A stretch of 64,000 nt of DNA from Labilithrix sp. (GTDB lineage Bacteria > Myxococcota_A > Polyangia > Polyangiales > Polyangiaceae). The notes under the pieces were generated by a model. It saw only the letters and a program-made list of their open reading frames with translations, made no database searches and was not told where the DNA came from. The DNA lies in NCBI GenBank assembly GCA_026128965.1, contig JAHCIY010000002.1, forward strand, positions 1,448,108-1,512,107, given 5' to 3'. The position numbers were made by a program, and so were the translations under genes. Below, one piece after another: positions 29,815 through 45,077 of the stretch (position 1 is the stretch's first letter; every line of letters starts with the position of its first letter).

Positions 29815-29841
29815 TTCGATCCGAGCAGAGGAGCGGAGAAG

Positions 29842-29909
29842 CCGAGCATGACCGCGAGCCGAGCATGACCGCGAGCCGAGCATGACCGCGAGCCGAGCAT
29901 GACCGCGCC
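29842..29909 (+). repeat. 17-bp x4 perfect tandem repeat (gccgagcatgaccgcga), each copy carrying an ATG; the last ATG is the start of the downstream gene
   Basis: ATGs at 29848, 29865, 29882 and 29899, exactly 17 nt apart. The first three are followed by an in-frame TGA (MTASRA*). The fourth opens the 157-aa ORF. Confidence 0.8.
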
Positions 29910-30372
29910 GCTGCCTGTCGCTTGCACCGTCGCCGACTTCGACGCCGTGCTCACCGCGCGCGCGCACGTGCGCTCGTTCGCGGGGGCGCTCGGGTTCGAT
30001 CGCGAGGTCGTGGAGGAGCTCGTCGTCGTCGTGTCGGAGCTCGCCTCGAACATCGTGAAGTACGGGCGGCGCGGTCGCATCGAGCTCACCGCGATCGATC
30101 GGCCGGAGGAAGGGATGCGCGGGATCGCGATCGCGGCCGAGGACGAGACCGCGCCCTTCGACCTCGCGGGGAGCCTCCGCGACGGCTACGACGCGCGCGG
30201 CAAGCTCGATCCCGCGAGCGTCTACGGCCGCGGCGGCATCGGCGCCGGGCTCGGCGCGGTCGCGCGCTTCAGCGACGGGCTCGATCTCGTCCCCCTCGCC
30301 GGCGGAGGAAAGCGCATCGTAGCGCGCCGCCTGCTCGGCCGGCCACGCCGCGGCTCGTCGCCGTCGTTCTGA
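29899..30372 (+). CDS. Anti-sigma-factor-type Ser/Thr protein kinase (HATPase_c_2; RsbW/RsbT/SpoIIAB-like)
   Basis: VVVVSELASNIVKYG (N-box-like E..NA..Y) and a Gly-rich ATP lid (GRGGIGAGLG). 157 aa. Confidence 0.8.
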   Translation: MTAPLPVACTVADFDAVLTARAHVRSFAGALGFDREVVEELVVVVSELASNIVKYGRRGRIELTAIDRPEEGMRGIAIAAEDETAPFDLAGSLRDGYDARGKLDPASVYGRGGIGAGLGAVARFSDGLDLVPLAGGGKRIVARRLLGRPRRGSSPSF

Positions 30373-30700
30373 AGCGGTCGCGCCGTCGCCGAAGGTGGCT
30401 GCAAGTTCGTCATCGCTCGGCCGACGGCGTCGCGGCTCGTAGCGCGCCGCCTGCTCAGCCGGCCAAGCCACGCGTCGTTCCGAAGCGGTGGCATCGCTCG
30501 TCGCGCTGCCGGTGCGGCCGCCGGCGGCTCGTCGCCATCGTCTGAAGGCGCGCCCCCGCCGCGTCGCGCGCCGCCGCCCGTCGCCTGCTCGGTACCGTCC
30601 GCGGCTCGTCGCGCTTGCTCGTCGGCTGCCGCTCGTCGCTGTAGTTGAAGCGGGTGCGTCGCGGCTCGTCGCGCGTCGTTCTGGAAGCGGTCGCGTCGCG
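30316..30700. repeat. Direct repeats duplicating the last ~55 bp of the upstream kinase gene, plus further partial copies
   Basis: gtagcgcgccgcctgctcggccggccacgccgcggctcgtcgccgtcgttctga (gene 3' end, 30316-30372) recurs at ~30437-30492 with few changes. Shorter ggcggctcgtcgc...gtcgttctg(a/g)aagcggtcgcg copies run to ~30700. Confidence 0.65.
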
Positions 30701-30727
30701 GCTTGTCGGCGATGGCGCGGGCTTGGG

Positions 30728-31369
30728 TCAGTCGTCGTCGGGGGAGAAGTAGCGGGTGATGTAGCGCTGGAGGGCGGTGCGCATCGTGCGGTGGGTGAGG
30801 ACGCCGCTGAGGTCGACGCCCATGTGGATGATGGTTTGCGCGATGGCCGGGTTGATGCCGGTGAGGAGGCACTCGGCGCCGAGGAGGCGGACCGCGCGTG
30901 CCATGCGGAGGAAGTGATCGGCGGTTCCGGTGTCCATGACCTGGATGCCGGTGATGTCGATGATCGCGCAGTCCGCTTTTTTCTCGACGATCGCGCTGAG
31001 GAGCGCCTCCGTCATCTCGGCGCTGCGGGTGCTGTCCAGCACGCCCACGACCGGGAGACAGAGGACGCCGGCCCAGACCTCGATGATCGGGGTCGACAGC
31101 TCGCGGATCGCCGCGCGCTGGATCTCGATCGTCGCGAGCTTCTCCTCGAGCTCCTTCTGGTACGTCGCGCTCCGCTCCTGCTCCTTCGCGAGCGAGCCGA
31201 TCATCTGGTTGATGCCCTCGTAGAGCGTCGAGAGCGGGTGGTTCTCGGGCAGGTTGCTCTTGAGGCGCGTCGAGTAATCACCGCTTCCCACGTCCGCGAC
31301 GACGATGAGGATGTCAGCGATTCGCTCGAGCATCAGCTCCGACAAGTTCTGGTCGACCGCCTCCGGCAT
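30728..31369 (-). CDS. STAS-domain protein with ~95-aa N-terminal coiled-coil extension (RsbR-like stressosome/partner-switching component)
   Basis: C-terminal STAS (SpoIIAA-like) fold: IIEVWAGVLCLPVVGVLDSTRSAEMTEALL....ADCAIIDITGIQVMDTGTADHFLR...LLGAECLLTGINPAIAQ. AAGGA 9 nt upstream of the ATG at 31369. Confidence 0.8.
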   Translation of the reverse strand: MPEAVDQNLSELMLERIADILIVVADVGSGDYSTRLKSNLPENHPLSTLYEGINQMIGSLAKEQERSATYQKELEEKLATIEIQRAAIRELSTPIIEVWAGVLCLPVVGVLDSTRSAEMTEALLSAIVEKKADCAIIDITGIQVMDTGTADHFLRMARAVRLLGAECLLTGINPAIAQTIIHMGVDLSGVLTHRTMRTALQRYITRYFSPDDD

Positions 31370-31437
31370 TCGTCAGGTCCTTTGCGTCCCGCGCACGATG
31401 GCACGGCATTTCGTGGAAGCAAACTATTCTCGGTAAG

Positions 31438-31872
31438 TCAGCGCGTCTCGCGCGGCGTTCGCGGCCGCGGCCGCTTGTTGGGGCCGCCCTTGGGCGCGTG
31501 CCCGTCGAGGCGGCCGATCCCGAGCGACTTGAACGCCGCCTCGAGCGTGAGCGCCGTCCGGACCACGCCCATGTCTATCCCCATCGTTTGGAGGGTGATC
31601 GCGACTTGCGCGTTCATCCCACAAATGATGCTGTCCGCGCCCATCAGCCGCGCGGAGGCGGCGAGGCGCGAGAGGACGGCGCAGAGGTGGCTGTCGACCA
31701 TCCAGATACCCGTGAGATCGATGATTAACCCTTCCGCCCCGGTATCCCGGATGGTGTCGAGCACCTGATCTACCAGCCGCTCGGCGATGTGGTCGCTCAC
31801 GTCCCCCTGGAGCGGGACGAGCACTTGGTTCCAGAGGTGGATCACCGGGAGGCGATCGAGGCTGTCCGTCAT
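31438..31872 (-). CDS. Single STAS-domain protein (RsbS/anti-sigma-factor-antagonist-like)
   Basis: Start at the internal ATG (MTDSLDRLPVIHLW). STAS signature VIHLWNQVLVPLQGDVSDHIAERL....LIIDLTGIWMVDSHLCAVLSRLA...GADSIICGMNAQVAITL. The longer track ORF upstream is Arg-rich and not protein-like. Confidence 0.8.
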   Translation of the reverse strand: MTDSLDRLPVIHLWNQVLVPLQGDVSDHIAERLVDQVLDTIRDTGAEGLIIDLTGIWMVDSHLCAVLSRLAASARLMGADSIICGMNAQVAITLQTMGIDMGVVRTALTLEAAFKSLGIGRLDGHAPKGGPNKRPRPRTPRETR

Positions 31873-31929
31873 CGCGGCCGAGATTCGCACGAGACGCCGT
31901 GTCCGTCGAGCCTCGGCGCTACATCTGTT

Positions 31930-32235
31930 ATGGGTGATTTCATGGAAATGCGGGAAAGCTTTCGCGCGCCCTTTCTGGAGATGGCGTGGCAACGCCACCG
32001 TCGCATCGCCCAGCTCCTGAGCGAGGCCGGCGGGGAGAGCACGGAGCTCCGCTCCGCGGCGTCGGAGCTGCATTGCCTCTCGGGCGAGGCGAGCATGCTC
32101 GCCTTCGACGGCGTGGCCGACGTCGCGCGCGACGCGGAGGCGGCGGCGCGCAAGGGGGACCGCGTGCGGCTCCGCAACCTCGTCGAGGAGCTGCGCTCGG
32201 AGATCGAGGCCGTCGCCGAGGAGCGCGCGCCGTGA
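31930..32235 (+). CDS. Hpt (histidine phosphotransfer) domain protein
   Basis: Internal ATG at 31930 (MGDFMEMRESF). Phosphoacceptor-like helix ELHCLSGEASMLAFDGVA (H.LKGSA...G pattern). Its stop overlaps the GTG start of the downstream CheB gene. Confidence 0.6.
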   Translation: MGDFMEMRESFRAPFLEMAWQRHRRIAQLLSEAGGESTELRSAASELHCLSGEASMLAFDGVADVARDAEAAARKGDRVRLRNLVEELRSEIEAVAEERAP

Positions 32236-33332
32236 CGATCCGCGTCGTCGTCGTCGACGACTCGTCGATCTCGCGGATGGTCCTCCGCCGCATCCTCGAG
32301 GCGGACGGCGACATCCAGGTCGTCGGGGAGGCGACGAACGGCTTCGAGGCGCTCCCGAAGATCCTCGAGCACAAGCCGAACCTCGTCACGATGGACATCG
32401 ACATGCCGGGCCCGAGCGGGCTCGAGACGATCGGCCGCGTCATGGGGACGAGCCCGGTGCCGATCCTCGTCGTGACCGCCGAGCGCCTCGGACCCGACAG
32501 CGACGTCGGCTTCCGCGCGATCCAGTCCGGCGCGCTCGACTTCATGGCGAAGCCGTCGATCGGCGACGAAGAGAGCATGAAGATGCTGCGCCAGCACGTC
32601 CGCGTCCTCGCCGACGTGCCGGTGTTCCTCCACATGGAAGAGCGGCACGACGCGTCGCGCACGATGCGCGCGGGCCCGATCGAAGAGCCGCCGCCGTTCT
32701 CGCTCATCGCGATCGCGGGCGGCACCGGCGCGCCGAAGTCGGTCGCGACGATCCTCGAGGCGATCCCGCCGGGAATCTCCGCGCCGATCGTGATCGTGCA
32801 GCAGATGCCGGCGAAGTTCGGGGCCGCGTTCGTGAAGTACCTCCAGGGCGCGACCGCGCTCCGCGTGCGCACCGTCTCGGCGACGCCGCACGACTGCATG
32901 CCGGGTGAGGTCATCGTCGGCGAGCCGGGAGCGCACGTGTACTTCCCGCGGCGCGGCGTCGTCGTCTCGCGCGAGGGCGCGCCGTACGCGGGGGCGCTGC
33001 CGTCGATGACGGTCATGTTCCGCTCGATCGCGGAGACCTACGGAAAAGACGCGGTCGGCGTGCTCCTCTCGGGAACGGGGACCGACGGCCTCGAGGGCCT
33101 CGCCGCGATGCGCGAGGCCGGCGCGCTCACGATCGCGGAGAGCCCCGACTCCGCGCCCGTCGCCGAGCTCCCCGCCGCCGCGCTCGCCTCGGGCGCCGCC
33201 ACGCGCGCGCTCCAGGCGCAGATGATCGCGAGCTCGCTCGTGAGCGCGATGACCGACGTCGGCAAGAAGACGACCGCGCCGCCGAGCAGCGACCCCGCGT
33301 TCGCCGCGGAGCTGGACGTGCGAATGCGCTGA
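32232..33332 (+). CDS. cheB: Chemotaxis-type protein-glutamate methylesterase/deamidase CheB (REC + CheB_methylest)
   Basis: GTG at 32232 (VTIRVVVVDDSSISR). Receiver Asp region (VTMDIDMPGPSG), then catalytic domain with IVIVQQMP, GTGTDGLEG and S/H/D triad context. The first ~80 aa of the track ORF 31986..33332 fall in a different, non-protein-like region. Confidence 0.9.
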   Translation: MTIRVVVVDDSSISRMVLRRILEADGDIQVVGEATNGFEALPKILEHKPNLVTMDIDMPGPSGLETIGRVMGTSPVPILVVTAERLGPDSDVGFRAIQSGALDFMAKPSIGDEESMKMLRQHVRVLADVPVFLHMEERHDASRTMRAGPIEEPPPFSLIAIAGGTGAPKSVATILEAIPPGISAPIVIVQQMPAKFGAAFVKYLQGATALRVRTVSATPHDCMPGEVIVGEPGAHVYFPRRGVVVSREGAPYAGALPSMTVMFRSIAETYGKDAVGVLLSGTGTDGLEGLAAMREAGALTIAESPDSAPVAELPAAALASGAATRALQAQMIASSLVSAMTDVGKKTTAPPSSDPAFAAELDVRMR

Positions 33333-33413
33333 CCGCGCCGCCGGTGCGGCCCGGCCTCGAAGGATGCTGCGCCGTGGGAGCGCGGGGCGGAGGCGCCGAG
33401 CAGCGGCCTCGCG

Positions 33414-33779
33414 CTATCCGGCCTCCGAGAAGAACGCGGCGAGGCGGGAGGCGAGGGTGGCGCCGTCCTTGGGGACCGAGCCGCGGGCGCCGATGCGGGA
33501 CGCGAGGGCGTCCACCTCGCAGGGGGGGCGATCCGAGAAGAGGACCACCGGGAGGCGCGCCGCGTGGCGGGAGACCACCTCGACCAGCGCGTCGTCCGTG
33601 ACGCCGGGGTAGCTCGCGTCGACGAGGAGCAAGTCGGGGGTTCCGCCGGCGACCGCATCATCGATTTTTCCAGGGTCTTCGACGCTGGCGACCTCGTGGC
33701 CCGCCGCGGCGAGGGCGTGGGCGACGACGGCCCGGACGAGGGCGCTGTCGTCGACGAGGAGGATCTTCCGGGGAGACAC
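33414..33779 (-). CDS. Single-domain response regulator (CheY-like)
   Basis: Start at GTG (VSPRKILLVDDSALVRAV...). DLLLVDASYPGV...LPVVLFSD receiver signature. Upstream in-frame sequence would overlap the divergent 33859 gene and is not protein-like. Confidence 0.7.
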   Translation of the reverse strand: MSPRKILLVDDSALVRAVVAHALAAAGHEVASVEDPGKIDDAVAGGTPDLLLVDASYPGVTDDALVEVVSRHAARLPVVLFSDRPPCEVDALASRIGARGSVPKDGATLASRLAAFFSEAG

Positions 33780-33858
33780 GAAGCGTGACGATAGTCGAAA
33801 TCTTGGATTTGGTTTTCGTGAGAATAGTGCAAAATCGGACCACCGCTGAGGCGGCGAG

Positions 33859-34260
33859 ATGGGGCCCGAGACGATCGACATCGCGATCAAGATGGAGGGG
33901 GACATCGTGCGCGCCCGCGGGGCGGGGCGCGAGATGTGTCGCGAGCTCGGGCTCAGCGAGATCAACCAGGTCAAGGTCGCGACCGCGATCTCCGAGCTCG
34001 CGCGCAACATCTTCCACTACGCGCAGACCGGGAACATCCACCTCCGGAAGCTCGCGTCGCCGCGCCCCGGCATCGAGATCGTCGCGACCGACCGCGGCCC
34101 CGGCATCTCCGATCTGAAGCTCGTCCTGAGCGGCACGTACCAGTCGCGCACCGGGATGGGGAAGGGCCTCCTCGGCGCCCGCCGGCTCGTCGACTTCTTC
34201 GAGGTCGACACCGGCCCGGAGAAGGGCACGCGCGTCGTCCTCCGCAAGTACGCGCGGTGA
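33859..34260 (+). CDS. Anti-sigma-factor-type Ser/Thr kinase (RsbT-like switch kinase)
   Basis: KVATAISELARNIFHYA plus Gly-rich GMGKGLLGARRL ATP-lid. 133 aa. Followed 4 nt later by the GAF-PP2C gene. Confidence 0.8.
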   Translation: MGPETIDIAIKMEGDIVRARGAGREMCRELGLSEINQVKVATAISELARNIFHYAQTGNIHLRKLASPRPGIEIVATDRGPGISDLKLVLSGTYQSRTGMGKGLLGARRLVDFFEVDTGPEKGTRVVLRKYAR

Positions 34261-34264
34261 CGGC

Positions 34265-35560
34265 GTGAACGGGGAGATCCAACAACACCTCGACCGCCTG
34301 CGCGCCTTCGGCGGGCTCCGCCGCGAGCTGCGCGTGCTCGAGGACCTGGAAGGGATCGCGCGCGTGGCCCTCCGCTTCGCGGTCGACGTGCTCGGCTGCG
34401 CGCGCGCCGCGCTGTATTGCGCCGAGAAAGAGGACGGCGACTACGTCCGCCTCGCCGTCACCGACGAGACGCGCGCGACGCCGGCGTCGATCGAGCGCTC
34501 GTCCCCGCTCGGACAGGCGCTCGCGGACGCGGTGTGGACGACCGCCGATCCGATCGTGACCGCGTTCGGGGAAGGGGAGCCGATGGCCGCCGCCGTCGCG
34601 CTCCGCGGCTCGGCGGGGCAGCCGCTCGGCGCGCTCCTCGTCGCCGGCGCGCGCCTCGACGAGGAGCTCCTCGGCGAGCTCGCCTTCGACGTCGAGAGCG
34701 TCCTCGCGGTGCGCCTCATCGCGCAGCTCCGCGCGGAGGAGCTCGCGGTGCTCGAGATCCAGGAGCGCGAGCTCGTCGGCCTCTTGCGCGACGTCGAGGC
34801 GCGCGACGAGATCATCCAGCGCGATCTCGAAGAAGCGCGCCGCTTCCAGCGCCAGATGCTGGGGACGCCGCCGCGGATCGCGGGGGCGGCGGTCGAGGTC
34901 GTGTACACGCCGCTCGGCCTCGTCGGCGGCGACCTCTACGCCGTGTCGGCGGAGGACCGTCGCGTGCGCATGTTCGTCGCCGACGCGACGGGGCACGGCG
35001 TCCGCGCGTCGCTCACGACGATGTTCATCAAGAGCGGCTACGAGGCGGTCCGCCGCTCGGCGCCGGATCCGGCCTCGCTCCTCGCCGCGCTGAACGAGAC
35101 GATCGCCCACACCTACCGCAGCGCGGAGATGCTCTTCTCCGCGGTGTGCGTCGATCTCGACCTCGACACCGGGCGCCTGTGGATCGCGTCCGCCGCGCAC
35201 CCGCCCGCATGCATCGTCCGCGCCGGCGCGCCGGTCCTCCTCGAGGCCGGCGGCGCGTTCCTCGGGCTCCGGCCCGGCATGAAGTTTGGCCTCCACGAGG
35301 ATCGGATCGCGCCGGGAGATGGGGTCTACCTCTATACCGATGGATTCGTCGAAGCTCGAAAGGGGCAGGAGCAGTTCGGCGACGAGCGCTTCCAGGCCGC
35401 GATCGTGGACGCGCACGTCCGCGGAGAGAAGGCCGGCGCCGCGGTGCTGGCCGCGGTGACGGAGTTCCTCGCCGGTGGTGCGCTCGAGGACGACGGCACC
35501 TTCGTCGGCCTGCGTTTCGGGGTGGAGGACGACAGTGTGCCGAGCGTCCGGAGCGTCTGA
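34265..35560 (+). CDS. GAF-domain PP2C/SpoIIE-type serine phosphatase (RsbU/RsbP-like)
   Basis: GTG start. N-terminal GAF-like region, then GGDLYAV...RMFVADATGHGVRASL...YLYTDGFVEAR...DD.T phosphatase motifs. Confidence 0.85.
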   Translation: MNGEIQQHLDRLRAFGGLRRELRVLEDLEGIARVALRFAVDVLGCARAALYCAEKEDGDYVRLAVTDETRATPASIERSSPLGQALADAVWTTADPIVTAFGEGEPMAAAVALRGSAGQPLGALLVAGARLDEELLGELAFDVESVLAVRLIAQLRAEELAVLEIQERELVGLLRDVEARDEIIQRDLEEARRFQRQMLGTPPRIAGAAVEVVYTPLGLVGGDLYAVSAEDRRVRMFVADATGHGVRASLTTMFIKSGYEAVRRSAPDPASLLAALNETIAHTYRSAEMLFSAVCVDLDLDTGRLWIASAAHPPACIVRAGAPVLLEAGGAFLGLRPGMKFGLHEDRIAPGDGVYLYTDGFVEARKGQEQFGDERFQAAIVDAHVRGEKAGAAVLAAVTEFLAGGALEDDGTFVGLRFGVEDDSVPSVRSV

Positions 35561-35636
35561 GGTGAAATCGTCGAACCAGACGGATTCGTGCGATCGTGTT
35601 GCAGCGGCCGACACGCCGAGTAAGATCGCTGGGCCG

Positions 35637-36155
35637 ATGTCGACGCACGACGATCAGTCGCTCTTCGAGCTGCGCTTCCGGCCGACGGTGGCCCTCGCGT
35701 CGACGGTGCGTCGCTTCGTCGCGGAGTTCTACCGCGAGCTCCTCTCCGACGCCGACGTGAGCCACCGCCTCGCGATGGCGACGCACGAGATGCTCGAGAA
35801 CGCGGTCCACTACTCGATCGATCAGCGCTCCGAGCTCGTCATCTCCGCGCGCCGCGTCGAGGGCGAGCTCGTCGTCGCGATCCGGACGAAGAACCGCGCG
35901 ACGACGGAGCGCCTCGAGAAGGTGCGCCTCCACCTCGACGAGGTGCTCGGCGCGTCCGACGCCTCGGCGATGTACACCCGGCTCATGCATCGCGCCGCGA
36001 AGCGCACCGACGGCGGCAGCGGCCTCGGGCTCGGTCGCATCCGCGCGGAGGCCGACCTCGCGCTCTCGTACGCGATCGACGGCGACACGATCGCCGTCAC
36101 CGCCGAAGGGCATTTCCCACGCGCAGAAGGCGCGCTGCTGACAGGGGCCCCATGA
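35637..36155 (+). CDS. HATPase_c_2-like protein kinase (partner-switch kinase, SiaB/RsbW-like; tentative)
   Basis: Internal ATG at 35637 (MSTHDDQSLF). LAMATHEMLENAVHYS resembles the E..NA..H N-box of anti-sigma kinases. Gly-rich DGGSGLGLGRIR follows. Its stop overlaps the next start (ATGA). Confidence 0.6.
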   Translation: MSTHDDQSLFELRFRPTVALASTVRRFVAEFYRELLSDADVSHRLAMATHEMLENAVHYSIDQRSELVISARRVEGELVVAIRTKNRATTERLEKVRLHLDEVLGASDASAMYTRLMHRAAKRTDGGSGLGLGRIRAEADLALSYAIDGDTIAVTAEGHFPRAEGALLTGAP

Positions 36156-36547
36156 TCGACATCCCGAACATCGACGCGAACGATCTCCGTGCGGCCCCGA
36201 CCTTCACCGACGGGCAGCTCTCGGTCGTGTTCGCGGGCAGCGCCGACTCGCGCTCGCAGGACGCGATCCAGGAGCTGCTCCGTCGCGTCCACGCCGAGGC
36301 GATGCGCCTCCAGCTGCCCGAGGTCGCGATCGACTTCCGCGACTGCGACTTCGTGAACTCGTCGTGCTTCAAGGCGTTCGTCGTCTGGCTCGAGCAGATC
36401 CAGGAGCTCGACGAGAACCAGCAGTACCGCCTCCGCTTCTTCTCCGACGACACGAAGGCCTGGCAGAGGCGGAGCCTCCAAGCGCTCTCGTGCTTTGCGA
36501 TCGAGCTCGTTCATATCGAGTCGAAAGCCCGTCGTGTCGGCAGCTGA
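36152..36547 (+). CDS. Small acidic protein resembling STAS/DUF1987 (SiaC-like) phosphorylatable partner-switch proteins (tentative)
   Basis: 131 aa. Pattern LSVVFAGSADSRS...EVAIDFRDCDFVNSSCFKAFVVWLEQIQ recalls the phospho-Ser/Thr loop plus beta-strand of antagonist-type folds. Family call is from memory only. Confidence 0.5.
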   Translation: MIDIPNIDANDLRAAPTFTDGQLSVVFAGSADSRSQDAIQELLRRVHAEAMRLQLPEVAIDFRDCDFVNSSCFKAFVVWLEQIQELDENQQYRLRFFSDDTKAWQRRSLQALSCFAIELVHIESKARRVGS

Positions 36548-38030
36548 AGCGCTCCCGAACGACATCGTCGCTCAGTTTCGAGCGACGACGGTGGAGCGCC
36601 TCGGACGCATCGAAGAGGCGTGGGGCTCGCTCGCGCACGGCGTCGCGACGGCGGAGAACGAGTCGGAGCTGTTCCACGACGTCCACACGCTGAAGGGCGA
36701 GGCCCGCCTCGTCGGGTTCGCCGACGTCGTCCTGATCATCCAGCGGCTCGAGGACCTCCTCGTCGCCGCGCGCCGCCGCCGCTACCGCGTGAACGAGGAC
36801 GTCGACGTGCTCGTCACGATGGCGATCCAGTTCGCGCGCATGCTCGTGCGGAAGCGCCCCGGCGCGTCGAACGGCGGGATCGACATCGGCGGCTTCCTCA
36901 AGCAGATCGAGGACGTCCTCGCGGAGTGGCCGCGCCAGTCGGAGGGCCCGGAGTCGAACGGCGCCGCGTCGATGCGCCCGGCCGACGGCGGCAAGATCAC
37001 GGTCGCGATCCGGCAGCGCCTCGGCGGCGCGGCGACCCAGATCTTCCTCGAGATGCTCGTCGCGTCCGACCGGATCCGCCTCCGCCGCGCGTGGGACACG
37101 CTCGTCGGCGAGCTCGCCGGCCTCGACGCGGTGCCGCTCATGCCCGTCGCTCGCCACCACGCGGCGTCGGCGAAGGAGCTCGCGGCCGAGCTGGGGAAGG
37201 AGGTCGACGTCATCGTCGAGGGCCCCGATCTGCGCGTCGGCGTCGAGGTCCTCGACACGATCCACACGTCGCTCCTCCACTGCCTGCGCAACGCGGTCGA
37301 TCACGGGATCGAGCCGCCGAGCGCCCGCGTCGCCGCGGGCAAGCCGCGCCGCGGCAACGTCTGCGTGAAGGTCCGCGCCGAGACCGACAGCGTCGCGGTG
37401 ATCGTGCAGGACGACGGCGGCGGCGTCGACCTCGAGTCGATCCGCGATCGCGCGGCGAAGCTCGGGCTCCTCTCGGCCGAAGACGCGCTCGCCGCGCCGG
37501 AGGCGACGCTCCTCGATCTGACGTTCGCGGCCGGCTTCTCCGTGCGCGAGTCCGCGGGCACGGTGTCGGGCCGCGGCATCGGGCTCGACGCCGTGCGCGC
37601 AGGGATCGAGCGGCTCGGCGGGCGGATAGGGATCGCGTCCACGCGCGGCGTGGGGGCGATCGTGTCGTTCGAGGTCCCGAGCACGCGGCGCGTCGTCGAG
37701 GTGCATCGCCTCCCGTCGACGCAGGCCGGCCTCTCCTTCGCGATCCCGACGACGTGGACGGTGCGGAGCGGCAAGAGCGATTCGTACCTCGATCCAGTCA
37801 CCGTGCTCGCGCTCCGGCGCAACGAGCAGACCACGCCGACGGTGGGTCAGATCGTCGTCACGCGCGACGGCGAGGAGCACGGCCTCGTCATCGGCGGCCC
37901 CGTCTCGCGCGTCGCCGCGACGCGCATCGCGCCGACGTCGCCGGACGAGCCGCTCGAGGTCGTCGCGTTCGGCGGCGAGCACCTCCTGCTCCTCCGCCCC
38001 GAGGTGTTCTTCACCGCGCGCGGCCCCTGA
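36528..38030 (+). CDS. CheA-like histidine kinase (Hpt - dimerisation - HATPase - CheW-like), no P2 domain
   Basis: Likely GTG start near 36528-36531, overlapping the end of the 36152..36547 gene. N-terminal Hpt H-box HDVHTLKGEARLVGF; CheA-type N-box HCLRNAVDHGIEP; G-boxes DDGGGVD, GRGIGLDAV; C-terminal ~110-aa CheW-like domain. Confidence 0.85.
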   Translation, partial: PVVSAAEALPNDIVAQFRATTVERLGRIEEAWGSLAHGVATAENESELFHDVHTLKGEARLVGFADVVLIIQRLEDLLVAARRRRYRVNEDVDVLVTMAIQFARMLVRKRPGASNGGIDIGGFLKQIEDVLAEWPRQSEGPESNGAASMRPADGGKITVAIRQRLGGAATQIFLEMLVASDRIRLRRAWDTLVGELAGLDAVPLMPVARHHAASAKELAAELGKEVDVIVEGPDLRVGVEVLDTIHTSLLHCLRNAVDHGIEPPSARVAAGKPRRGNVCVKVRAETDSVAVIVQDDGGGVDLESIRDRAAKLGLLSAEDALAAPEATLLDLTFAAGFSVRESAGTVSGRGIGLDAVRAGIERLGGRIGIASTRGVGAIVSFEVPSTRRVVEVHRLPSTQAGLSFAIPTTWTVRSGKSDSYLDPVTVLALRRNEQTTPTVGQIVVTRDGEEHGLVIGGPVSRVAATRIAPTSPDEPLEVVAFGGEHLLLLRPEVFFTARGP

Positions 38031-38035
38031 TCGGA

Positions 38036-38404
38036 TCACGCCTCGCCGAGGACGCTCTTCACCTTCGCGAGCAGCGCGTCGGGTCCGGCCTTCTTCGTGA
38101 CCCAGCCGTCGACCTCGGCTTCGGCCGCGCGCCGGGCGAGCTCCTCCTCGTCGAGGCTCGAGAGGAGGAGGATCGGCGACGATACTTTGTACGCGCCGCG
38201 GAGCGCGCTCGCGAGGTCGTCGCCGAAGACCTCCGGCATCTGGACGTCGACGATGATGAGGTCGGGCGCGGCGCGCCGGCGCTCCGCTTCGAACGCGGCG
38301 ACCGTCGTCGCGGTCGCGACCTCGTAGCCGGCGCGCTCGAGCACGGCGCGCGTGAAGTCGAGCACGAGCGCGCTGTCGTCGATGAGGAGGATCCTACGCG
38401 GCAC
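38036..38404 (-). CDS. CheY-like single-domain response regulator
   Basis: RILLIDDSALV...LIIVDVQMPEV...SPILLLSS...WVTKK receiver motifs. Confidence 0.85.
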   Translation of the reverse strand: MPRRILLIDDSALVLDFTRAVLERAGYEVATATTVAAFEAERRRAAPDLIIVDVQMPEVFGDDLASALRGAYKVSSPILLLSSLDEEELARRAAEAEVDGWVTKKAGPDALLAKVKSVLGEA

Positions 38405-39143
38405 CGTATTCGCTCCACGGCGGCGCGCCGATCAGGAACTCGAGCGTGCAGAAGAGGTCCTTCAGCGCGATCGGCTTGGCGAGGAAGAGGTCGGCGCCGG
38501 CGTCGAGCATCGCCTGGCGCGCCGCCCTTCCGGCGCCGCTCATCCCGACGATGAAGGCGAGCCCGAGCTGGGTGTCGGCGCGGAGGCGCGAGACGAAGTC
38601 GGTGCCGGAGCTGGCCTTCAGCGTGTGATCGACGAGGAGGAGATCGAGGTCGGGGCGCGCGAGGCGCCACGCCTCCTCCGCCGTCGCCGCCTGCACGAGG
38701 CGGAGGCGGGCGGAGCGTTGCTTGAAGTAGCGCTCGAACGCGTACGCGAACGTGTCGCGAATGAGCTGGTTGTCCTCGACGAGCAAGACCGAGAGCTCGC
38801 GGTTCGCGAGCGCGCCGGGGACCGGGCGGATGCGCCGCGCGACCTCACGCGCGCGCTCTCGCTGCCGCTCGTCGGCGAAGTCGAAGGTCGCGACGAAGCC
38901 GGGCGGCGAGCCGGGACCGTCGGAGACGCGGATCTGCGTGACGGCGGCGGAGAGGCGGAGCGGGCGGAAGATGCGCGGGAACGAGAGCTCGACGCTCACG
39001 CGATGATCGAGAGGCGGGAGAAGCTCGGTGATCACGAAAACCGACTCTTCCGTCATCTCGATGGCACACGTCGTCTCCGCGAAGCCGTCGCGGAAGAGCT
39101 CGGCACGCAAGATCGCGCTGCGCTGTGCGCTCACGGTCGTCAC
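38394..39143 (-). CDS. Response regulator with N-terminal PilZ-like domain (tentative) and C-terminal receiver
   Basis: C-terminal REC (LSVLLVEDNQ...LLLVDHTLK...IVGMSG...AKP). N-terminal ~120 aa have an R(x)4R element and DGPGSPPG loop suggestive of a degenerate PilZ. Overlaps the downstream CheY-like gene by 11 nt. Confidence 0.6.
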   Translation of the reverse strand: MTTVSAQRSAILRAELFRDGFAETTCAIEMTEESVFVITELLPPLDHRVSVELSFPRIFRPLRLSAAVTQIRVSDGPGSPPGFVATFDFADERQRERAREVARRIRPVPGALANRELSVLLVEDNQLIRDTFAYAFERYFKQRSARLRLVQAATAEEAWRLARPDLDLLLVDHTLKASSGTDFVSRLRADTQLGLAFIVGMSGAGRAARQAMLDAGADLFLAKPIALKDLFCTLEFLIGAPPWSEYGAA

Positions 39144-39227
39144 TGCGATCAGGATAACGGTGCGTTCGCGCGCCGCGTAGAGCGTTCCATCGCGCCGGGA
39201 GACGAACGGTGCGATAGGGAGCGAGCA

Positions 39228-39482
39228 TCACTCCTCGGTGATGACGGCGTCGTGCGCGGCGGTGATCTGCGCAGCGACCGTCTTCCGCACCACTTCTTCG
39301 ATCGCGACGTCGACGTTCGTGACCTCGATCACGCCGCGGCCGTCGCTCTCGAGCCGCGCCTGCACGCCGCTCTCCTTCGGCAGGCCGAGCGCGCGGAGGT
39401 TCTCCTCGGTCCGCGCCTGGAGCGTGACCATCTCCGGCGCGCCGAAGGTCCCGCGGAACGTGAAGACGATGCTCTTCCTCAT
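39228..39482 (-). CDS. Small hypothetical protein (~85 aa)
   Basis: Internal ATG (MRKSIVFTFRGTFGAPE...). No recognisable motifs. Confidence 0.35.
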   Translation of the reverse strand: MRKSIVFTFRGTFGAPEMVTLQARTEENLRALGLPKESGVQARLESDGRGVIEVTNVDVAIEEVVRKTVAAQITAAHDAVITEE

Positions 39483-39574
39483 CCGCTGAATAGAGCGCGA
39501 TCCACGCGGCTCTTCAATGCTGCGCGAGGGCGCAGGATTGACTCCGCTCACCTGGGCTGTCATCTTCGTCGTCC

Positions 39575-39648
39575 GAGGCGGTGGAGTCCGCCCTCATCCG
39601 TTCGCTCCCTCGAAGGCAGCGAGCCAATGGCTCCTACGGCAGTGCCAT
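39575..39648 (+). ncRNA. Candidate fluoride riboswitch (crcB motif) aptamer with an RBS-sequestering expression platform
   Basis: GGCGGUGGAGUCCGCC (P1 stem GGCG/CGCC with an 8-nt loop, as in the GGCGAUGGnnnnCGCC consensus), a middle hairpin, then 3' CAAUGGCUCCUAC. Loop GGAGUC can pseudoknot with GGCUCC (one G-U). Downstream hairpin CCUCCG-N12-CGGAGG (39675-39698) buries the GGAGG RBS of the CLC gene. Confidence 0.55.
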
Positions 39649-39705
39649 GACTGGCGCCGTAGGTCATCGATAACCTCCGGCGCTTCACGACGCGGAGGTT
39701 GTGAC

Positions 39706-40998
39706 GTGCGATCGAACATCCTGGCGGCCCTGAAGAGGCGGGCGAACGCGCTCCTCCAGTGGATCGGGCTCGGGGCGGCGGTGGGGCTCGCCTGCGGCGG
39801 CGCGTCGGCGTTCTTCCTCACGCTGCTCGAGCACGCGACGCAGCTCCGCGAGTCGCACGAGCAGCTCGTCTACACGCTGCCGATCGCGGGCCTCGTCATC
39901 GGCTTCCTCTACGACCGCTGGGGGAAGCCGATCAAAGGCGGCAACAACCTCGTCCTCGACACGATGCACGAGAGCGCGCCGCAGATCCCGTTTCGCATGG
40001 CGCCGATGGTGCTCCTCGGCACCGTCCTCACCCACGTCTTCGGCGGCAGCGCGGGACGTGAAGGCACGGCGGTGCAGATGGGCGCGAGCCTCGCCGACGA
40101 GATCGCCCATCGAGCGCGCGTCGGCAAGGAGACGCGTCGCCAGCTCCTGGCGGCGGGGATCGCGGGCGGCTTCGGCTCGGTCTTCGGCACCCCCATCGCC
40201 GGGACGGTCTTCGGAATGGAGGTCGTCTCGGTCGGTCGCATCGAATACGACGCGTTCTTGCCGGCGCTCGTCGCGTCCGTCGTCGGTGACCTCGTCACGC
40301 GCCGGCTCGGGATCGTCCACACGCCGTATCCACGCCTCGCGCACGTCGAGCTCACCGGGATCGTCCTCGGGAAGCTCGCGGTCATGGCGGTGGCGATGGC
40401 CCTCGCGACGATCGCGTTCGTCGAGCTCACGCATCGCCTGAAGCACCTCCTCGAGCGAAAGATCCGTTGGCTCTCGGTCCGCATGTGCGTGGGCGGGATC
40501 TGCGTCGTCGTGATGTGGAAGCTGATCGGGACGAGCGACTACCTCGGGCTCGGCGTGCCGATGATCGTCCGCTCGTTCGACGATCCGAGCCTGCCGTGGT
40601 TCGCGTTCGCGGCGAAGCTCGTGTTCACGTCGGTGACGCTCGCGGCGGGCTTCCTCGGCGGCGAGGTGACCCCCCTCTTCTTCGTCGGCGCCACGCTCGG
40701 GAGCGTGCTGGCGCGTCTCCTTGGTCTGCCGATCGAGCTCGGCGCCGGGGTCGGCCTCGCCGCGGTCTTCGGCGCGGCCGCGAACACGCCGATCGCGCTC
40801 TCGATCATGGCGGTCGAGCTGCTCGGCGCGGAGGCGTTCCCGCACGTCGTGATCGTCTCGGTCATCGCGTACATCTTGACCGGTCACCGCGGGATCTACC
40901 CCGCGCAGCGGATCCAGCTGCGAAAGCACGGCGGGCTCTTGCGCCGTCCCGTCCCGCTCCGCGACTACCGCGACTCGACCGCGCCGCCCGACTCGTGA
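39706..40998 (+). CDS. CLC-family fluoride/proton antiporter (CLC-F, EriC-F type)
   Basis: GTG at 39706, 8 nt after GGAGG. CLC architecture with GNNLV in place of GSGIP and GREGT in place of GREGP (hallmarks recalled for the fluoride-specific CLC-F clade); GxxxGMEV second gating region; GTPIAG. Confidence 0.85.
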   Translation: MRSNILAALKRRANALLQWIGLGAAVGLACGGASAFFLTLLEHATQLRESHEQLVYTLPIAGLVIGFLYDRWGKPIKGGNNLVLDTMHESAPQIPFRMAPMVLLGTVLTHVFGGSAGREGTAVQMGASLADEIAHRARVGKETRRQLLAAGIAGGFGSVFGTPIAGTVFGMEVVSVGRIEYDAFLPALVASVVGDLVTRRLGIVHTPYPRLAHVELTGIVLGKLAVMAVAMALATIAFVELTHRLKHLLERKIRWLSVRMCVGGICVVVMWKLIGTSDYLGLGVPMIVRSFDDPSLPWFAFAAKLVFTSVTLAAGFLGGEVTPLFFVGATLGSVLARLLGLPIELGAGVGLAAVFGAAANTPIALSIMAVELLGAEAFPHVVIVSVIAYILTGHRGIYPAQRIQLRKHGGLLRRPVPLRDYRDSTAPPDS

Positions 40999-41094
40999 GG
41001 AGAGGAGCATGGACCCGATCGCGGACCCGCTGAACGCGCTCGAGCGGCTCGCCGCCGCGCTCCGTCCGCTCGCGATCACGAATCCGATTTGGAT

Positions 41095-42441
41095 TCAGCC
41101 GTAGTGGCTCGCCGGCGCCGGCGCCGGTGCCTTCGGCGAGCGCGGGATCTCGAACCAGAACGTCGCGCCGCGGCCGACCTCCGACTCGACGCCGGCGCGA
41201 CCGCCGTGCGCCTCCGCGAGGCGGCGCACCGTCGCGAGGCCGAGGCCGACGCCGGGCTCCTTCGTGCCCGGCGCGCGGACGTAGGGATCGAAGACGCGGG
41301 CGTGGAGCTCGCGCGCGAGGCCGGGACCGTTGTCGGCGACCTCGACGCGGACGGCGGAGCCGCGCTCGCGGGCGCGGATCTCGATGCGAGGCTCCTCTCC
41401 GTTGCCGTTGCCGTTGCCGTTGCCGATGTACTTGATCGCGTTCCGCGCGAGGTTCGCGATGAGGCTCGTGAGGACGCCCGGATCGCACGCCGCGACGAGG
41501 TCGGCGTCTTGCTTCGTCGTCAGCGCGATGCGCTTCTCCGCGACGGTGGGCTCGAGCTCGGCGACGAGGTCGGCGGTGATGCGCGCGACGTCGGCGCGCG
41601 CCCCGACGGCGGGCCGTCCCCCCGCGCGCGCGAACTCGAGGAGGCCGTTCACGAGGCGCTGGATCCGCTCGAGCGACGAGGTCCCGCGCTCGACGACGCG
41701 CGCGCGTTGCTTCGGATCTTCGGTCCGGCCGAGGATGTCGAGGGCGAAGCCGATCGCGCCGAGCGGGCTCAGGATGTCGTGCGCGACGCGGCCGGCGAAG
41801 CCTTCGAGCTCCGCCGCGCGCTCCTCTTGCAGCTGCCGCCGCCGCTCCGCGATCTCGCGATCGGCGCGGACGAAGCGCTGCACGAGGTACGCGCCGAGGA
41901 GCGCGAGGAGCGCGCACACGACGTCGAGCGCGAGGGCGACGCGGCTCGACTGCGCGCGGAGGTGCCGGATGCGGAGCGCCGACTCGCGCGTTCGCACCGC
42001 GCTCGCCTCGAGCGCCTCCGTGATCGCGTCCGACACGTCGCCGACGATCGGCAGGACGTCGTCCACGTCCGCGTCGTCGCGCTCGAGGCGCCGCAACATG
42101 CCGTCGAGCTCGTCCTTGGAGCGCCGCACGTCGCGCCAGCTCTCCTCCTCCCCGGGCAAGAGCGGGCGCGTGAGGTAGCCGTCGAGCGAGCGATCGAGGA
42201 CGTGGCGCGCGTCGACGAGCGCCGCGTTCTCCACTGGCTCGCGGCGGAGGACGAGGAGGAGGTGCCGCAGATCGCTGCGTGCGGCGGCGAGGTGCTCGAT
42301 GCCGGGCGCGGAGTCGTCGGCGATCTCGAGCGCCGCGTCGTCGATCGCGCGCAATTCCCAGTGCACGAACGCGGTCGCGGTGACGAACGAGAGGACCACG
42401 CCCGCGAAGATCGCGGGCAGGACTACGCGCGAGGTCGGCAT
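41095..42441 (-). CDS. Membrane sensor histidine kinase (HisKA + HATPase_c)
   Basis: Start at the internal ATG (MPTSRVVLPAIFAGVVLSF, TM1); second TM ~aa 190. H-box FAGRVAHDILSPLGAI; N-box LIANLARNAIKY; G-boxes DNGPGL, GVGLGLA. Contains a (GN)4-5 insertion encoded by (gttgcc)4. Confidence 0.85.
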   Translation of the reverse strand: MPTSRVVLPAIFAGVVLSFVTATAFVHWELRAIDDAALEIADDSAPGIEHLAAARSDLRHLLLVLRREPVENAALVDARHVLDRSLDGYLTRPLLPGEEESWRDVRRSKDELDGMLRRLERDDADVDDVLPIVGDVSDAITEALEASAVRTRESALRIRHLRAQSSRVALALDVVCALLALLGAYLVQRFVRADREIAERRRQLQEERAAELEGFAGRVAHDILSPLGAIGFALDILGRTEDPKQRARVVERGTSSLERIQRLVNGLLEFARAGGRPAVGARADVARITADLVAELEPTVAEKRIALTTKQDADLVAACDPGVLTSLIANLARNAIKYIGNGNGNGNGEEPRIEIRARERGSAVRVEVADNGPGLARELHARVFDPYVRAPGTKEPGVGLGLATVRRLAEAHGGRAGVESEVGRGATFWFEIPRSPKAPAPAPASHYG

Positions 42442-42532
42442 GCGTGACACCTCCGGCTGCGGGACTGTGCCCCGACAGCGAAGGCCTGCCATTCATTCCC
42501 GACGAATCGTGGTCGAGGTCGATCGTCGACTC

Positions 42533-45000: not shown

Positions 45001-45077
45001 GACCGCCTCTTACTACATCCCTGTGGAGAAAATCCCGCGCAACCACCGCGAAGGGCGGTCGAACGACGCGCACACAC

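Follow-up and report, generated by a model that had tools for sequence, protein, structure and literature searches.

A candidate serine-phosphorylation partner switch joined to a CheA-family histidine kinase in Labilithrix sp. and other Myxococcota

What controls a CheA-family histidine kinase whose gene lies directly behind a phosphatase, a small kinase-like protein and a STAS-fold protein, in the position where partner switches elsewhere encode a sigma factor or a diguanylate cyclase? We address this question for an island within the window, a 64-kb stretch of a Labilithrix sp. contig, and refer to the kinase-like protein as KIN, to the STAS-fold protein as STASL and to the CheA-family kinase as CheAL. 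An earlier note on this DNA had described the four genes as a module with siaABCD-like order (PP2C, kinase, STAS-like protein, output), and that order holds. Its gene list was incomplete, however, in lacking the RsbT-like gene, the RsbS/RsbR-like pair, the Hpt and CheB-like genes and three receiver genes, all of which are included here:

30728–31369, minus strand: RsbR-like STAS protein of the stressosome scaffold type (Pfam STAS, E 3.6e-13; RsbR matches in the PDB)
31438–32073, minus strand: RsbS-like STAS protein (Pfam STAS, E 2.7e-10; PDB 6jhk)
31930–32235, plus strand: single-domain Hpt protein of ~101 aa, inside ORF 31789–32235 (Pfam Hpt, E 2.2e-7)
32232–33332, plus strand: CheB-like protein, a receiver and a methylesterase domain without the catalytic Ser and His (Pfam CheB_methylest, E 6e-41; Response_reg)
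33414–33791, minus strand: single-domain response regulator, divergent from the operon (Pfam Response_reg, E 1.9e-9)
33859–34260, plus strand: HATPase_c_2 protein of 133 aa in the RsbT position (Pfam HATPase_c_2, E 4e-9)
34265–35560, plus strand: SpoIIE-type PP2C Ser/Thr phosphatase with an N-terminal domain of ~170 aa and a helical linker (Pfam SpoIIE, E 2e-39)
35637–36155, plus strand: KIN, small GHKL-fold protein resembling anti-sigma kinases and the DUF6272/slr1658 superfamily (fold; Pfam and NCBIfam scores below cut-off)
36152–36547, plus strand: STASL, acidic STAS-fold protein of 131 aa (AF2 fold; slr1659_superfam; Ser70 alignment)
36534–38030, plus strand: CheAL, CheA-family histidine kinase (Pfam Hpt and HATPase_c; PDB profile, E 1.7e-63)
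38036–38404, minus strand: CheY-like single-domain response regulator (Pfam Response_reg, E 5e-21)
38394–39143, minus strand: PilZ-like (TIGR02266) N-terminal domain followed by a receiver (Pfam Response_reg; TIGR02266, E 1.2e-4, residues 27–100)

The PP2C, KIN, STASL and CheAL genes are real and lie where the earlier note had placed them. In all four, base composition by codon position is as expected for genes at 70% genomic GC (GC1 > GC2, GC3 0.88–0.95), and the NCBI gene calls of a Labilithrix sp. MAG have identical lengths, with P0247 (172 aa), P0001 (131 aa) and P0342 (498 aa) each 100% identical. The tight spacing that had been reported is also present in the sequence: KIN and STASL meet in an ATGA at 36152–36155, and the GTG start of CheAL at 36534 precedes the STASL stop at 36545–36547, giving an overlap of 14 nt. 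The PP2C gene likewise starts with GTG, 4 nt past the stop of the RsbT-like gene.

The small protein between the two kinases had been proposed to be acidic and STAS/DUF1987-like. It is acidic (pI 4.97) and, although no Pfam family matches at E < 0.01 (STAS_2, E 0.04), its AF2 model (pLDDT 91.8) has the STAS fold, matching TM1442, RsfB, RsbV and SpoIIAA at E 2e-5 to 1e-4. Membership of DUF1987/SiaC, on the other hand, is undetectable: Pfam gives no such match, the profile search of the PDB leads to SpoIIAA rather than SiaC, and SiaC ranks 26th or lower in Foldseek. STASL is thus closer to the canonical anti-sigma antagonists and to the NCBI slr1659 superfamily than to SiaC, with 46 of 46 STASL relatives matching slr1659_superfam and STASL itself scoring 30.1 bits, far below the curated cut-off of 100. 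The same PDB profile search aligns Ser70 with Ser58 of SpoIIAA, its phospho-serine. In the model Ser70 caps the N terminus of helix 2, it lies in an invariant motif, F-(M/V)-N-S-S-C-F-K, and it is retained in every one of the 88 STASL copies that have KIN upstream; Ser70 is therefore the predicted phospho-site.

KIN narrowly misses the Pfam cut-offs for HATPase_c_2 (25.3 bits) and DUF6272 (24.7 bits). Its AF2 model (pLDDT 88.8) matches SpoIIAB (2e-6), UsfX, RsbW and SiaB, the last with the top TM-score (0.61), and all 26 KIN relatives match NCBIfam slr1658_superfam, for which KIN scores 44.5 bits, again far below the cut-off of 100. The N-box and G2 box are conserved, and the G1 motif D-x-G-x-G is replaced by T-x-N-R. 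The Asp of this box contacts adenine in GHKL ATPases, and KIN may have an unusual mode of ATP binding or be a pseudokinase. When KIN is compared by profile with a canonical neighbour, the alignment covers the N-box alone. On synteny and fold KIN is a putative kinase, and the earlier reading of the trio (phosphatase, GHKL switch-kinase-like protein, STAS-fold protein) stands.

The earlier label of the phosphatase holds in part. Its catalytic domain is secure, with a best PDB match, at E 1e-27, to 6k4e, which we take to be the PP2C domain of SiaA; the GAF domain assigned to it is unconfirmed, since GAF_3 scores 18.8 bits where 27 are required and the N-terminal 170 residues found no match in the PDB. 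In the RsbT-like protein encoded just before it, the N-box and the D-x-G-x-G motif are canonical, and its gene adjoins the SpoIIE gene in L081–L084, even where these loci are rearranged. Further upstream, the RsbR-like protein is best matched in the PDB by stressosome RsbR from V. vulnificus and Listeria (E 1e-29 to 1e-28) and the RsbS-like protein by B. subtilis RsbS (6jhk, E 5.9e-19), the true start of the latter gene probably lying downstream of that of the longest ORF. The RsbR-like gene is peripheral, and the linkage of both genes to the module is kept in close relatives only; the STAS/STAS/HATPase_c_2 trio is found also in L081/L082. The Hpt protein carries an H-x-x-S-G motif and its stop overlaps the CheB-like start. 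An Hpt gene of 91–106 aa likewise precedes CheB in L081–L083, and in L169 one of 107 aa lies ahead of the gene for a 367-aa receiver protein. In the CheB-like esterase domain, aligned to 1a2o, Gly stands in for Ser164 and Gln for His190, and the enzyme is probably inactive. The divergent response regulator at 33414–33791 is conserved in L081–L083.

CheAL is a true CheA-family kinase, tightly coupled to the trio as had been proposed. Pfam recognizes Hpt and HATPase_c alone, whereas the profile search against solved CheAs (P4 domain, E 1e-63) extends into P5. The protein comprises P1 (Hpt, His51), lacks P2, and retains part of P3 and an intact P4, ending in a P5 that is short and degenerate; the H-T-L-K-G motif of His51 and the N, G1 and G2 boxes are invariant. 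The CheY-like gene is convergent with CheAL, 5 nt separating the two stops; homologues of it are found beside the module in L001, L026 and L071 and immediately after STASL in L020, L031, L038, L047, L048, L050 and L056, while homologues of the PilZ-receiver gene adjoin the module in L001, L026 and L035. Neither Pfam, run on nearly all called genes, nor a six-frame search for motifs turned up an MCP, CheW or CheR anywhere in the 64-kb window. The short P5-like C terminus might still couple CheAL to MCP/CheW proteins encoded elsewhere in the genome.

The neighbourhood is conserved well beyond this island. Of 77 Myxococcota loci, about 72 have KIN directly 5′ of STASL, and the two are naturally fused in P0102, P0132, P0155 and P0196. 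The order KIN-STASL-CheAL, with overlaps or gaps of ≤~17 nt, recurs in relatives down to 35–40% identity, and the gene set is still linked in L083 despite rearrangement. A gene of the CheAL subfamily occurs in 20 of 80 STASL-led loci, directly behind STASL in 12 of them; in eight loci (L014, L021–23, L028, L030, L044, L050) it lies 1–7 kb away from KIN-STASL. Sampling led by CheAL, independent of the STASL-led set and comprising nine loci, places STASL directly upstream in eight, against none of 78 generic CheA loci; L167 has neither KIN nor STASL within 6 kb of CheAL. The arrangement thus exceeds chance. Outputs vary among the ~500-aa CheA subfamily, response regulators and REC-GGDEF proteins of SiaABCD-like content, with ~19 paralogous loci placing the pair beside PP2C and a REC-GGDEF protein; many pairs have no obvious adjoining output gene. 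L168 and L169 read H-NOX, HNOBA-PP2C, KIN, STASL, CheAL, which points to the phosphatase as the sensor carrier on the input side.

Taken together, recurrence across Myxococcota and the lack of receptor genes nearby suggest that serine phosphorylation, rather than a chemoreceptor, controls CheAL. We consider the chances about even that a σB-type or SiaABC-type partner switch governs a receptor-independent CheA-family kinase, which would replace the sigma factor or diguanylate cyclase. An input would activate PP2C through its own N-terminal sensor domain, aided by the RsbT-like protein, which may in turn be held by its RsbR/RsbS-like neighbours. PP2C would then strip the phosphate off Ser70, and unphosphorylated STASL would bind CheAL and alter its autophosphorylation, in either direction. 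Phosphorylated CheAL could pass phosphoryl groups to the receivers at 38036 and 33414, the PilZ-receiver protein at 38394 and the CheB-like protein, with the separate Hpt protein as a possible relay, and KIN would reset the switch by re-phosphorylating STASL. For all these contacts, and for the direction and sign of regulation, we infer from synteny and folds. Direct STASL–CheAL binding is likewise conjectural; a STAS protein that binds CheA has a precedent in CheS of S. meliloti (PMC12654446), and a KIN-STASL pair with other outputs parallels SiaC-SiaD, HsbA-HsbD and BgrV-BgrR (PMC8457831, PMC7647112).

That contact is also where the strongest rival departs. In the σB paradigm the output is held by the kinase and not by the STAS protein, which counts against STASL–CheAL binding. 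KIN could similarly silence CheAL, as RsbW does σB, until unphosphorylated STASL draws KIN off. The fold of KIN is that of SpoIIAB/RsbW/UsfX, the RsbR-, RsbS- and RsbT-like genes and the RsbU-like PP2C put CheAL in the σB slot by analogy, and KIN, lacking a canonical G1 box, could be chiefly a binding protein. Yet STASL always intervenes between KIN and CheAL, the order STASL-KIN-CheAL never being seen, and in L038, L047, L048 and L086 a second STASL copy without a KIN of its own lies directly upstream of CheAL, both of which make STASL a likelier partner of CheAL than KIN. The KIN-STASL fusions, furthermore, suit a kinase and its substrate better than a releasable antagonist, and we regard the RsbW-like scheme as unlikely. 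In three of the four second copies Ser is replaced by Ala, probably through one evolutionary event.

It is more doubtful still that information flows the other way, as it does in Shewanella Che1-CrsR-CrsA or Pseudomonas HptB-HsbR-HsbA, with CheAL and the receivers as input and the partner switch as output; the target of STASL would then be a sigma factor or cyclase encoded elsewhere. F7 stage 1 chemosensory clusters do have anti-sigma antagonists and a Ser phosphatase beside cheY-cheA (PMC7184735, PMC9855816), the island holds many receivers and an Hpt protein, and paralogous loci have GGDEF partners. However, PP2C has no receiver domain here or in the related loci, where it has instead a sensor-type N terminus (HNOBA beside H-NOX in L168/L169) or an RsbT-like partner; the operon contains no sigma factor gene, and with no MCP or CheW in the window CheAL would lack an upstream activator. 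Least probable of all, in our view, is that KIN-STASL, as a generic regulator of slr1658/slr1659 type, serves a separate target and that CheAL, although sharing the operon or regulon, is independent. In many loci the pair does have unrelated neighbours, housekeeping or hydrogenase-maturation genes, and in L013, L025 and L059 it is followed by hyp genes and no CheAL, but mere co-location fits poorly with the CheAL-led count and with spacing so tightly kept at such low identity.

Among known systems, slr1658/slr1659 of Synechocystis (NF047703/NF047705; Pfam DUF6272) are the sole named families matched by all KIN and all STASL relatives, although the island proteins fall far short of the curated cut-off. 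The gene numbers suggest that the two are neighbours in Synechocystis too; slr1658 has been described as a putative two-component-like regulator, with a phenotype in recovery from iron starvation (PMC7555055), and the literature searched yielded no mention of DUF6272. CheS of Sinorhizobium meliloti and relatives, compared with STASL by description, is a single-domain STAS protein encoded beside cheA that forms a complex with CheA and changes how CheA interacts with CheY proteins; it operates, on the other hand, within a receptor/CheW chemotaxis system and has no known dedicated kinase/phosphatase pair. The F7 stage 1 clusters and Che1-CrsR-CrsA also bring CheA, STAS protein and Ser phosphatase genes together, but hold MCP, CheW, CheR and CheD, and their partner switch is seen as an output that reaches RpoS by way of a receiver-PP2C protein, whereas the island lacks receptor genes and its PP2C carries the sensor. 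In Vibrio vulnificus, RsbRSTX with D1/D2 forms a stressosome locus with a two-component 'downstream module' (Pane-Farre 2005, cited in PMC10014275), so that the output linked on the chromosome to a stressosome-type upstream module is a histidine kinase with a response regulator, and not a sigma factor; as described, the locus has no RsbU/V/W-type intermediate, and in place of a CheA-family protein it has a conventional sensor kinase.

SiaABCD of Pseudomonas aeruginosa (PP2C SiaA, kinase SiaB, DUF1987 protein SiaC, diguanylate cyclase SiaD) shares the order of phosphatase, small GHKL kinase, STAS-fold phosphoprotein and output enzyme, the 6k4e and SiaB matches, a phospho-site at the start of helix 2 (in STASL predicted) and, through the paralogous loci, the combination of PP2C and a GGDEF protein. 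It differs in its output, which in the island is a CheA-family kinase; STASL is not detectably DUF1987 and KIN is not of the SiaB family by curated models, and the island PP2C has no visible HAMP, a different N terminus and an RsbT-like gene before it. The σB cascade of Bacillus and Listeria (RsbR-RsbS-RsbT, RsbU, RsbV-RsbW) lacks a counterpart of CheAL, having a sigma factor in that slot, and its kinase/STAS order is inverted relative to the island; KIN lacks the G1 Asp, and the RsbR/S-like genes are linked to the module in close relatives only. What the two share, on the other hand, are RsbR-like and RsbS-like STAS proteins, an RsbU-like PP2C that has a helical linker and directly follows a 133-aa RsbT-like HATPase, and a kinase/STAS pair whose conserved Ser is equivalent to Ser56 of RsbV and Ser58 of SpoIIAA. 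With the RsbT-like, RsbR/RsbS-like and other added genes, the σB stressosome is thus at least as close an analogue of this island as SiaABCD.

The genes considered here encode a phosphatase (PP2C), a small kinase-like protein (KIN), a STAS-fold protein (STASL) and a CheA-family kinase (CheAL):

34265-35560, plus strand: PP2C, SpoIIE-type phosphatase, 431 aa
35637-36155, plus strand: KIN, small GHKL-fold kinase-like protein, 172 aa
36152-36547, plus strand: STASL, STAS-fold protein, 131 aa
36534-38030, plus strand: CheAL, CheA-family kinase, GTG start at 36534, 498 aa

In a window of ~70% GC, the four open reading frames placed here by the earlier note are supported both by codon-position GC statistics and by NCBI gene lengths (Labilithrix sp. 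MAG, Myxococcota; proteins 100% identical). The junctions it described also hold, with an ATGA overlap between KIN and STASL at 36152-36155 and CheAL starting 14 nt 5' of the STASL stop. A scan of 33300-39700 returned no promoter-like sites, and terminator-like sites at chance frequency; Rfam gave no matches in the whole window.

STASL is acidic (pI 4.97) and matches no Pfam family, even at E<=10, save STAS_2 at E 0.04, where its score of 14.5 bits lies below the cut-off of 29.2. Its AF2 model (pLDDT 91.8) nevertheless has a STAS fold, and the top Foldseek matches are the canonical anti-sigma antagonists TM1442, RsfB, RsbV and SpoIIAA; the small protein is thus STAS-like, as had been proposed from the sequence. 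In the model, Ser70 precedes helix 71-84, which is the phospho-acceptor position at the N-terminus of helix 2, and the invariant F-M-N-S-S motif aligns to F-M-D-S-S of SpoIIAA, so that Ser70 falls on the phospho-serine Ser58. The more specific proposal, that the protein is DUF1987-like, does not survive, the profile search having given no DUF1987 match. STASL does have the fold and phospho-acceptor position of SiaC, a fold common to all STAS proteins, but SiaC chains appear in the Foldseek list only at rank 26 or lower (TM 0.57-0.66, E 1e-2 to 8e-2), and the STASL family profile returned SpoIIAA and TM1442 from the PDB and not SiaC. TIGR00377 matches 28 of 46 STASL relatives weakly and the window protein not at all at E<=0.001.

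KIN narrowly misses the Pfam thresholds of HATPase_c_2 and DUF6272 (24.7 versus 26.6 for the latter). In its AF2 model (pLDDT 88.8) it adopts the fold of anti-sigma kinases: SpoIIAB matches at E 2e-6, and SiaB (6kko_A) gives the highest TM-score, 0.61. By sequence, the KIN profile found nothing meaningful among solved structures. The N-box H-E-L-L-E-N and the G2 box G-S-G-L-G-L are invariant, while the G1 motif D-x-G-x-G is replaced in the family by T-x-N-R with an invariant Asn86 (residues 84-88, window 35886-35900). This G1 assignment rests on AF2 secondary structure, because hhalign against the canonical HATPase encoded at 33859 aligned the N-box alone. Judged from these motifs, either the nucleotide pocket may be unusual or KIN may be a pseudokinase; without a canonical G1 box, kinase activity is therefore plausible but unproven. 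The SiaB family model NF038262 does not match the window KIN and matches 4 of 26 relatives weakly. On the other hand, all 26 KIN relatives and all 46 STASL relatives match the NCBIfam slr1658 and slr1659 superfamilies, respectively, at E<=0.001, with the window proteins scoring 44.5 and 30.1 against cut-offs of 100; the pair is therefore distantly homologous to slr1658/slr1659 and not a member by the curated rule.

PP2C is of the SpoIIE type (Pfam E 2e-39), and among solved structures it is most similar to 6k4e (E 1e-27), which we take to be the SiaA PP2C domain. Against NF038263, the SiaA-type equivalog with a cut-off of 700 bits, it reaches 45.6 bits, through the PP2C domain alone. The GAF label previously given to its N-terminus could not be confirmed: Pfam matches there are sub-threshold and residues 1-170 have no PDB match. 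The phosphatase, the kinase and the small protein of the original trio are all present, but the trio is incomplete as a description of the locus, having left out an RsbT-like gene, RsbS- and RsbR-like genes, and Hpt, CheB-like and receiver genes:

29176-29814: weak SpoIIE gene, upstream, in a further partner-switch/stressosome-like set
29899-30372, plus strand: HATPase_c_2 gene of the same set
30728-31369, minus strand: RsbR-like gene of the same set
31438-32073, minus strand: RsbS-like gene of the same set
Upstream: single-domain Hpt gene
32232-33332, plus strand: CheB-like gene, intact receiver domain plus a methylesterase domain with altered catalytic residues
Upstream of the operon: receiver gene
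33859-34260, plus strand: RsbT-like HATPase_c_2 gene, 133 aa
Downstream, convergent with CheAL: CheY-like receiver gene
38394-39143, downstream, convergent with CheAL: gene for a PilZ-like and receiver protein

The RsbT-like gene stops 4 nt before the PP2C start, an adjacency kept in relatives, rearranged ones included; its product has no PDB match by sequence. The RsbS-like and RsbR-like STAS genes upstream match stressosome proteins at E 6e-19 and 1e-29, respectively, so that a small HATPase_c_2 gene directly 5' of PP2C and RsbR/RsbS-like genes nearby occur together, as expected of a stressosome-type input. In two relatives' loci (L081 and L082), the HATPase and STAS genes share a strand, and there is no SpoIIE-like gene.

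The CheA-like identity of the fourth gene was borne out. CheAL carries a P1 domain (Pfam Hpt, E 1.2e-10) with an H51-T-L-K-G motif invariant in 14 orthologues, and an intact CheA-type P4 with N, G1, F and G2 boxes (profile E 1e-58 to 1e-63 against solved CheA P4 domains), in which H-x-x-R-N-A-x-D-H-G-I-E, D-D-G-x-G and S-G-R-G-x-G-x-D are invariant. It lacks P2, and neither Pfam CheW nor H-kinase_dim was found at E<=0.1. The profile alignment runs from the second P3 helix to ~75 residues into E. coli P5; P3 would thus be partial, and the C-terminal region, just ~110 aa, may be a short, degenerate P5. Domain scans covering nearly all genes across the 64-kb window found no MCP, CheW or CheR, a six-frame scan for the MCP hairpin and the CheW motif gave no matches, and none of the three was found in the relatives' loci examined. 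In the CheB-like protein, the catalytic Ser164 is replaced by Gly and His190 by Gln, Asp286 being kept; in a setting without neighbouring MCP or CheR genes, the protein resembles a pseudo-enzyme or a sink for phosphate. The relatives' CheB-like proteins vary at the catalytic Ser/His/Asp positions.

Conservation of this arrangement was assessed from both ends, with genes in the loci called from codon-position GC log-odds, a method checked on the window. The STASL family comprises ~1,200 clusters at 50% identity, from which 80 genome loci, nearly all from Myxococcota, were sampled. KIN lies directly upstream of STASL in ~72 of 77 called cases. The CheAL subfamily directly follows the pair in 9 of these loci, is found 1-7 kb away in 8 more, and accompanies a second STASL copy on the opposite strand in 3. 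Elsewhere a divergent PP2C and a REC-GGDEF gene adjoin the pair (~19 loci, SiaABCD-like in content), or it is followed by CheY-like receivers or by unrelated genes, including hydrogenase maturation genes. The unrelated neighbours would fit mere co-location of KIN-STASL and CheAL. Sampling led by CheAL, independently of STASL, bears on the same point: STASL is immediately upstream in 8 of 9 CheAL-subfamily loci, with KIN too in 7 of those 8; CheAL-like matches number ~2,300 in all. A metagenome scan with the CheAL alignment gave 2 informative loci and mostly generic CheAs, and the other 78 loci, used as the negative control, contain neither STASL nor KIN. No gene of the set is lost in close relatives (~85% and ~70% identity), although the order is sometimes shuffled; Hpt-CheB, the receivers and the RsbT-like/PP2C pair are all retained. 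The trio and the CheA-like gene are thus conserved neighbours, as the earlier note supposed; the linkage is well supported as a genomic association, and mere co-location is very unlikely.

Several further neighbours deserve mention. The genes hypF, hypC and hypD repeatedly lie 3' of KIN-STASL, with or without CheAL (L001, L002, L013, L025, L059, L165, L166 and L170), joined in two of these loci by a hydrogenase small subunit gene. This hints at a link to [NiFe]-hydrogenase regulation in some lineages, the window excepted, as no hyp genes follow its module. Among L003-L005, L008-L012, L016, L018, L019 and L027, the GGDEF-type loci have after STASL a conserved ~236-aa protein without a Pfam match (cluster C6), and four others a ~500-aa protein without a family match (C25); both are candidates for further switch outputs. 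KIN and STASL are naturally fused in a single chain in P0102, P0132, P0155 and P0196, and P0216, a receiver-PilZ-STASL fusion, contains RxxxR and DxSxxG-like motifs. Cross-talk with c-di-GMP is suggested by these fusions, by the PilZ-like/receiver gene at 38394-39143 and by the GGDEF genes that adjoin the pair at other loci. Away from the module, the window holds a single 3,016-aa reading frame made nearly entirely of TPR repeats (159-9209, plus strand), and in one relative's locus (L168) a TPR protein of >2,000 aa lies just 3' of CheAL. A ~1.5-kb stretch at 26530-28020 shows no convincing ORF, Rfam match or coding signal; on one side of it is an ABM monooxygenase gene (28020-28334) and on the other a multihaem-cytochrome-like gene (24676-26529), with a Gly/His/Lys-rich repeat close to the N-terminus of its product.

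How, then, might the switch and the kinase be connected? Ser70 is kept in all 88 STASL copies with KIN upstream. Of the 10 copies without KIN, 3 have Ala at this position, all directly 5' of CheAL. They are among four second STASL paralogues:

L038, 10585-10947, minus strand: directly 5' of CheAL, no kinase of its own, Ala at Ser70
L047, 4377-4745, minus strand: directly 5' of CheAL, no kinase of its own, Ala at Ser70
L048, 10604-10966, minus strand: directly 5' of CheAL, no kinase of its own, Ala at Ser70
L086, ~5038-5380, plus strand: directly 5' of CheAL, no kinase of its own, Thr at Ser70

With Ala in place, no phosphorylation is possible there. The pattern fits Ser70 as the putative target of KIN and STASL as a putative partner of CheAL; the three Ser-to-Ala copies probably reflect one evolutionary event. 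In the same three loci, a separate KIN-STASL-RR-RR operon faces the second paralogue. An RsbW-style arrangement, in which KIN itself would sequester CheAL, has the anti-sigma kinase fold of KIN to recommend it; in view of the kinase-less paralogues that adjoin CheAL, we consider it unlikely.

The direction of the signal is suggested by two relatives' loci, L168 (3279-7530) and L169 (3344-7536), in which genes for H-NOX (HNOB), an HNOBA-SpoIIE phosphatase, KIN, STASL and CheAL follow one another in order. These operons would represent a gas-sensor-linked PP2C feeding the KIN-STASL-CheAL module. From this order, and since no PP2C among these loci carries a receiver domain, PP2C would be the sensor-bearing input and CheAL the output. 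The reverse, with CheAL acting on the switch, has precedents in Che1-CrsR-CrsA and HptB-HsbR-HsbA (PMC9855816, PMC7184735); given the sensor-bearing, receiver-free phosphatases, it is distinctly improbable here.

We thus tentatively favour, as a real possibility that still falls short of probable, a widespread myxobacterial subfamily of ~500-aa CheAs that may have lost chemoreceptor control and may instead be controlled through direct contact with an slr1659-type STAS protein phosphorylatable at Ser, joining a Ser/Thr partner switch to a His-Asp phosphorelay. PP2C sensors would be interchangeable (stressosome/RsbT here, H-NOX in relatives), and the same pair would work with diguanylate cyclases in paralogous loci. 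An input would activate PP2C, through its own sensor domain or through an RsbT-like partner freed from RsbR/RsbS, and PP2C would then take the phosphate off STASL-pSer70. Dephosphorylated STASL could bind CheAL and alter its autophosphorylation. From CheAL the signal would pass to the CheB-like protein, the Hpt protein and the linked receivers, with KIN resetting the switch. All contacts in this scheme, like the sign of regulation, are presumed.

CheA is classically described as a receptor-coupled enzyme, and to our knowledge few modes of activation have been established for 'orphan' CheA-like kinases. Known targets of partner-switching modules include sigma factors, diguanylate cyclases and secretion. 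Control of enzymes by STAS-type partner-switch proteins is established for SiaC-SiaD, HsbA-HsbD and BgrV-BgrR (PMC8457831, PMC7647112), two-component outputs are known at stressosome loci (PMC10014275), and CheS, a STAS-only protein, binds CheA in S. meliloti (PMC12654446). In the literature searched, no paper reports a partner-switching module that feeds a CheA-family kinase, or a receptor-less CheA coupled to a STAS protein under kinase/phosphatase control, and none mentions DUF6272; for slr1658 there are genetic data alone, a phenotype in cyanobacteria. If confirmed, the proposed mechanism would offer a defined, reconstitutable control of CheA without a receptor array, would connect His-Asp phosphorelays with Ser/Thr phospho-switching, and possibly also with sensing by stressosomes and H-NOX, and would provide an initial mechanistic entry point to the slr1658/slr1659 (DUF6272) regulator pair.

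Among known systems, CheA chemotaxis clusters contain MCP and CheW in the same cluster, whereas the window and the relatives' loci have neither. With anti-sigma-factor antagonists (SpoIIAA/RsbV), STASL shares the STAS fold and the phosphorylatable Ser of the D/N-S-S motif; in those systems, however, the partner kinase holds a sigma factor, and no sigma-70-family domain was found among the genes scanned (28020-47683). The adjacency of 33859-34260 and PP2C resembles the RsbT-RsbU pair. The SiaB-family model of SiaABCD is not matched by the window KIN, though the folds are alike (TM 0.61), and where the fourth gene of SiaABCD encodes a diguanylate cyclase, that of the window encodes a CheA-family kinase, the GGDEF partner appearing in paralogous loci only.
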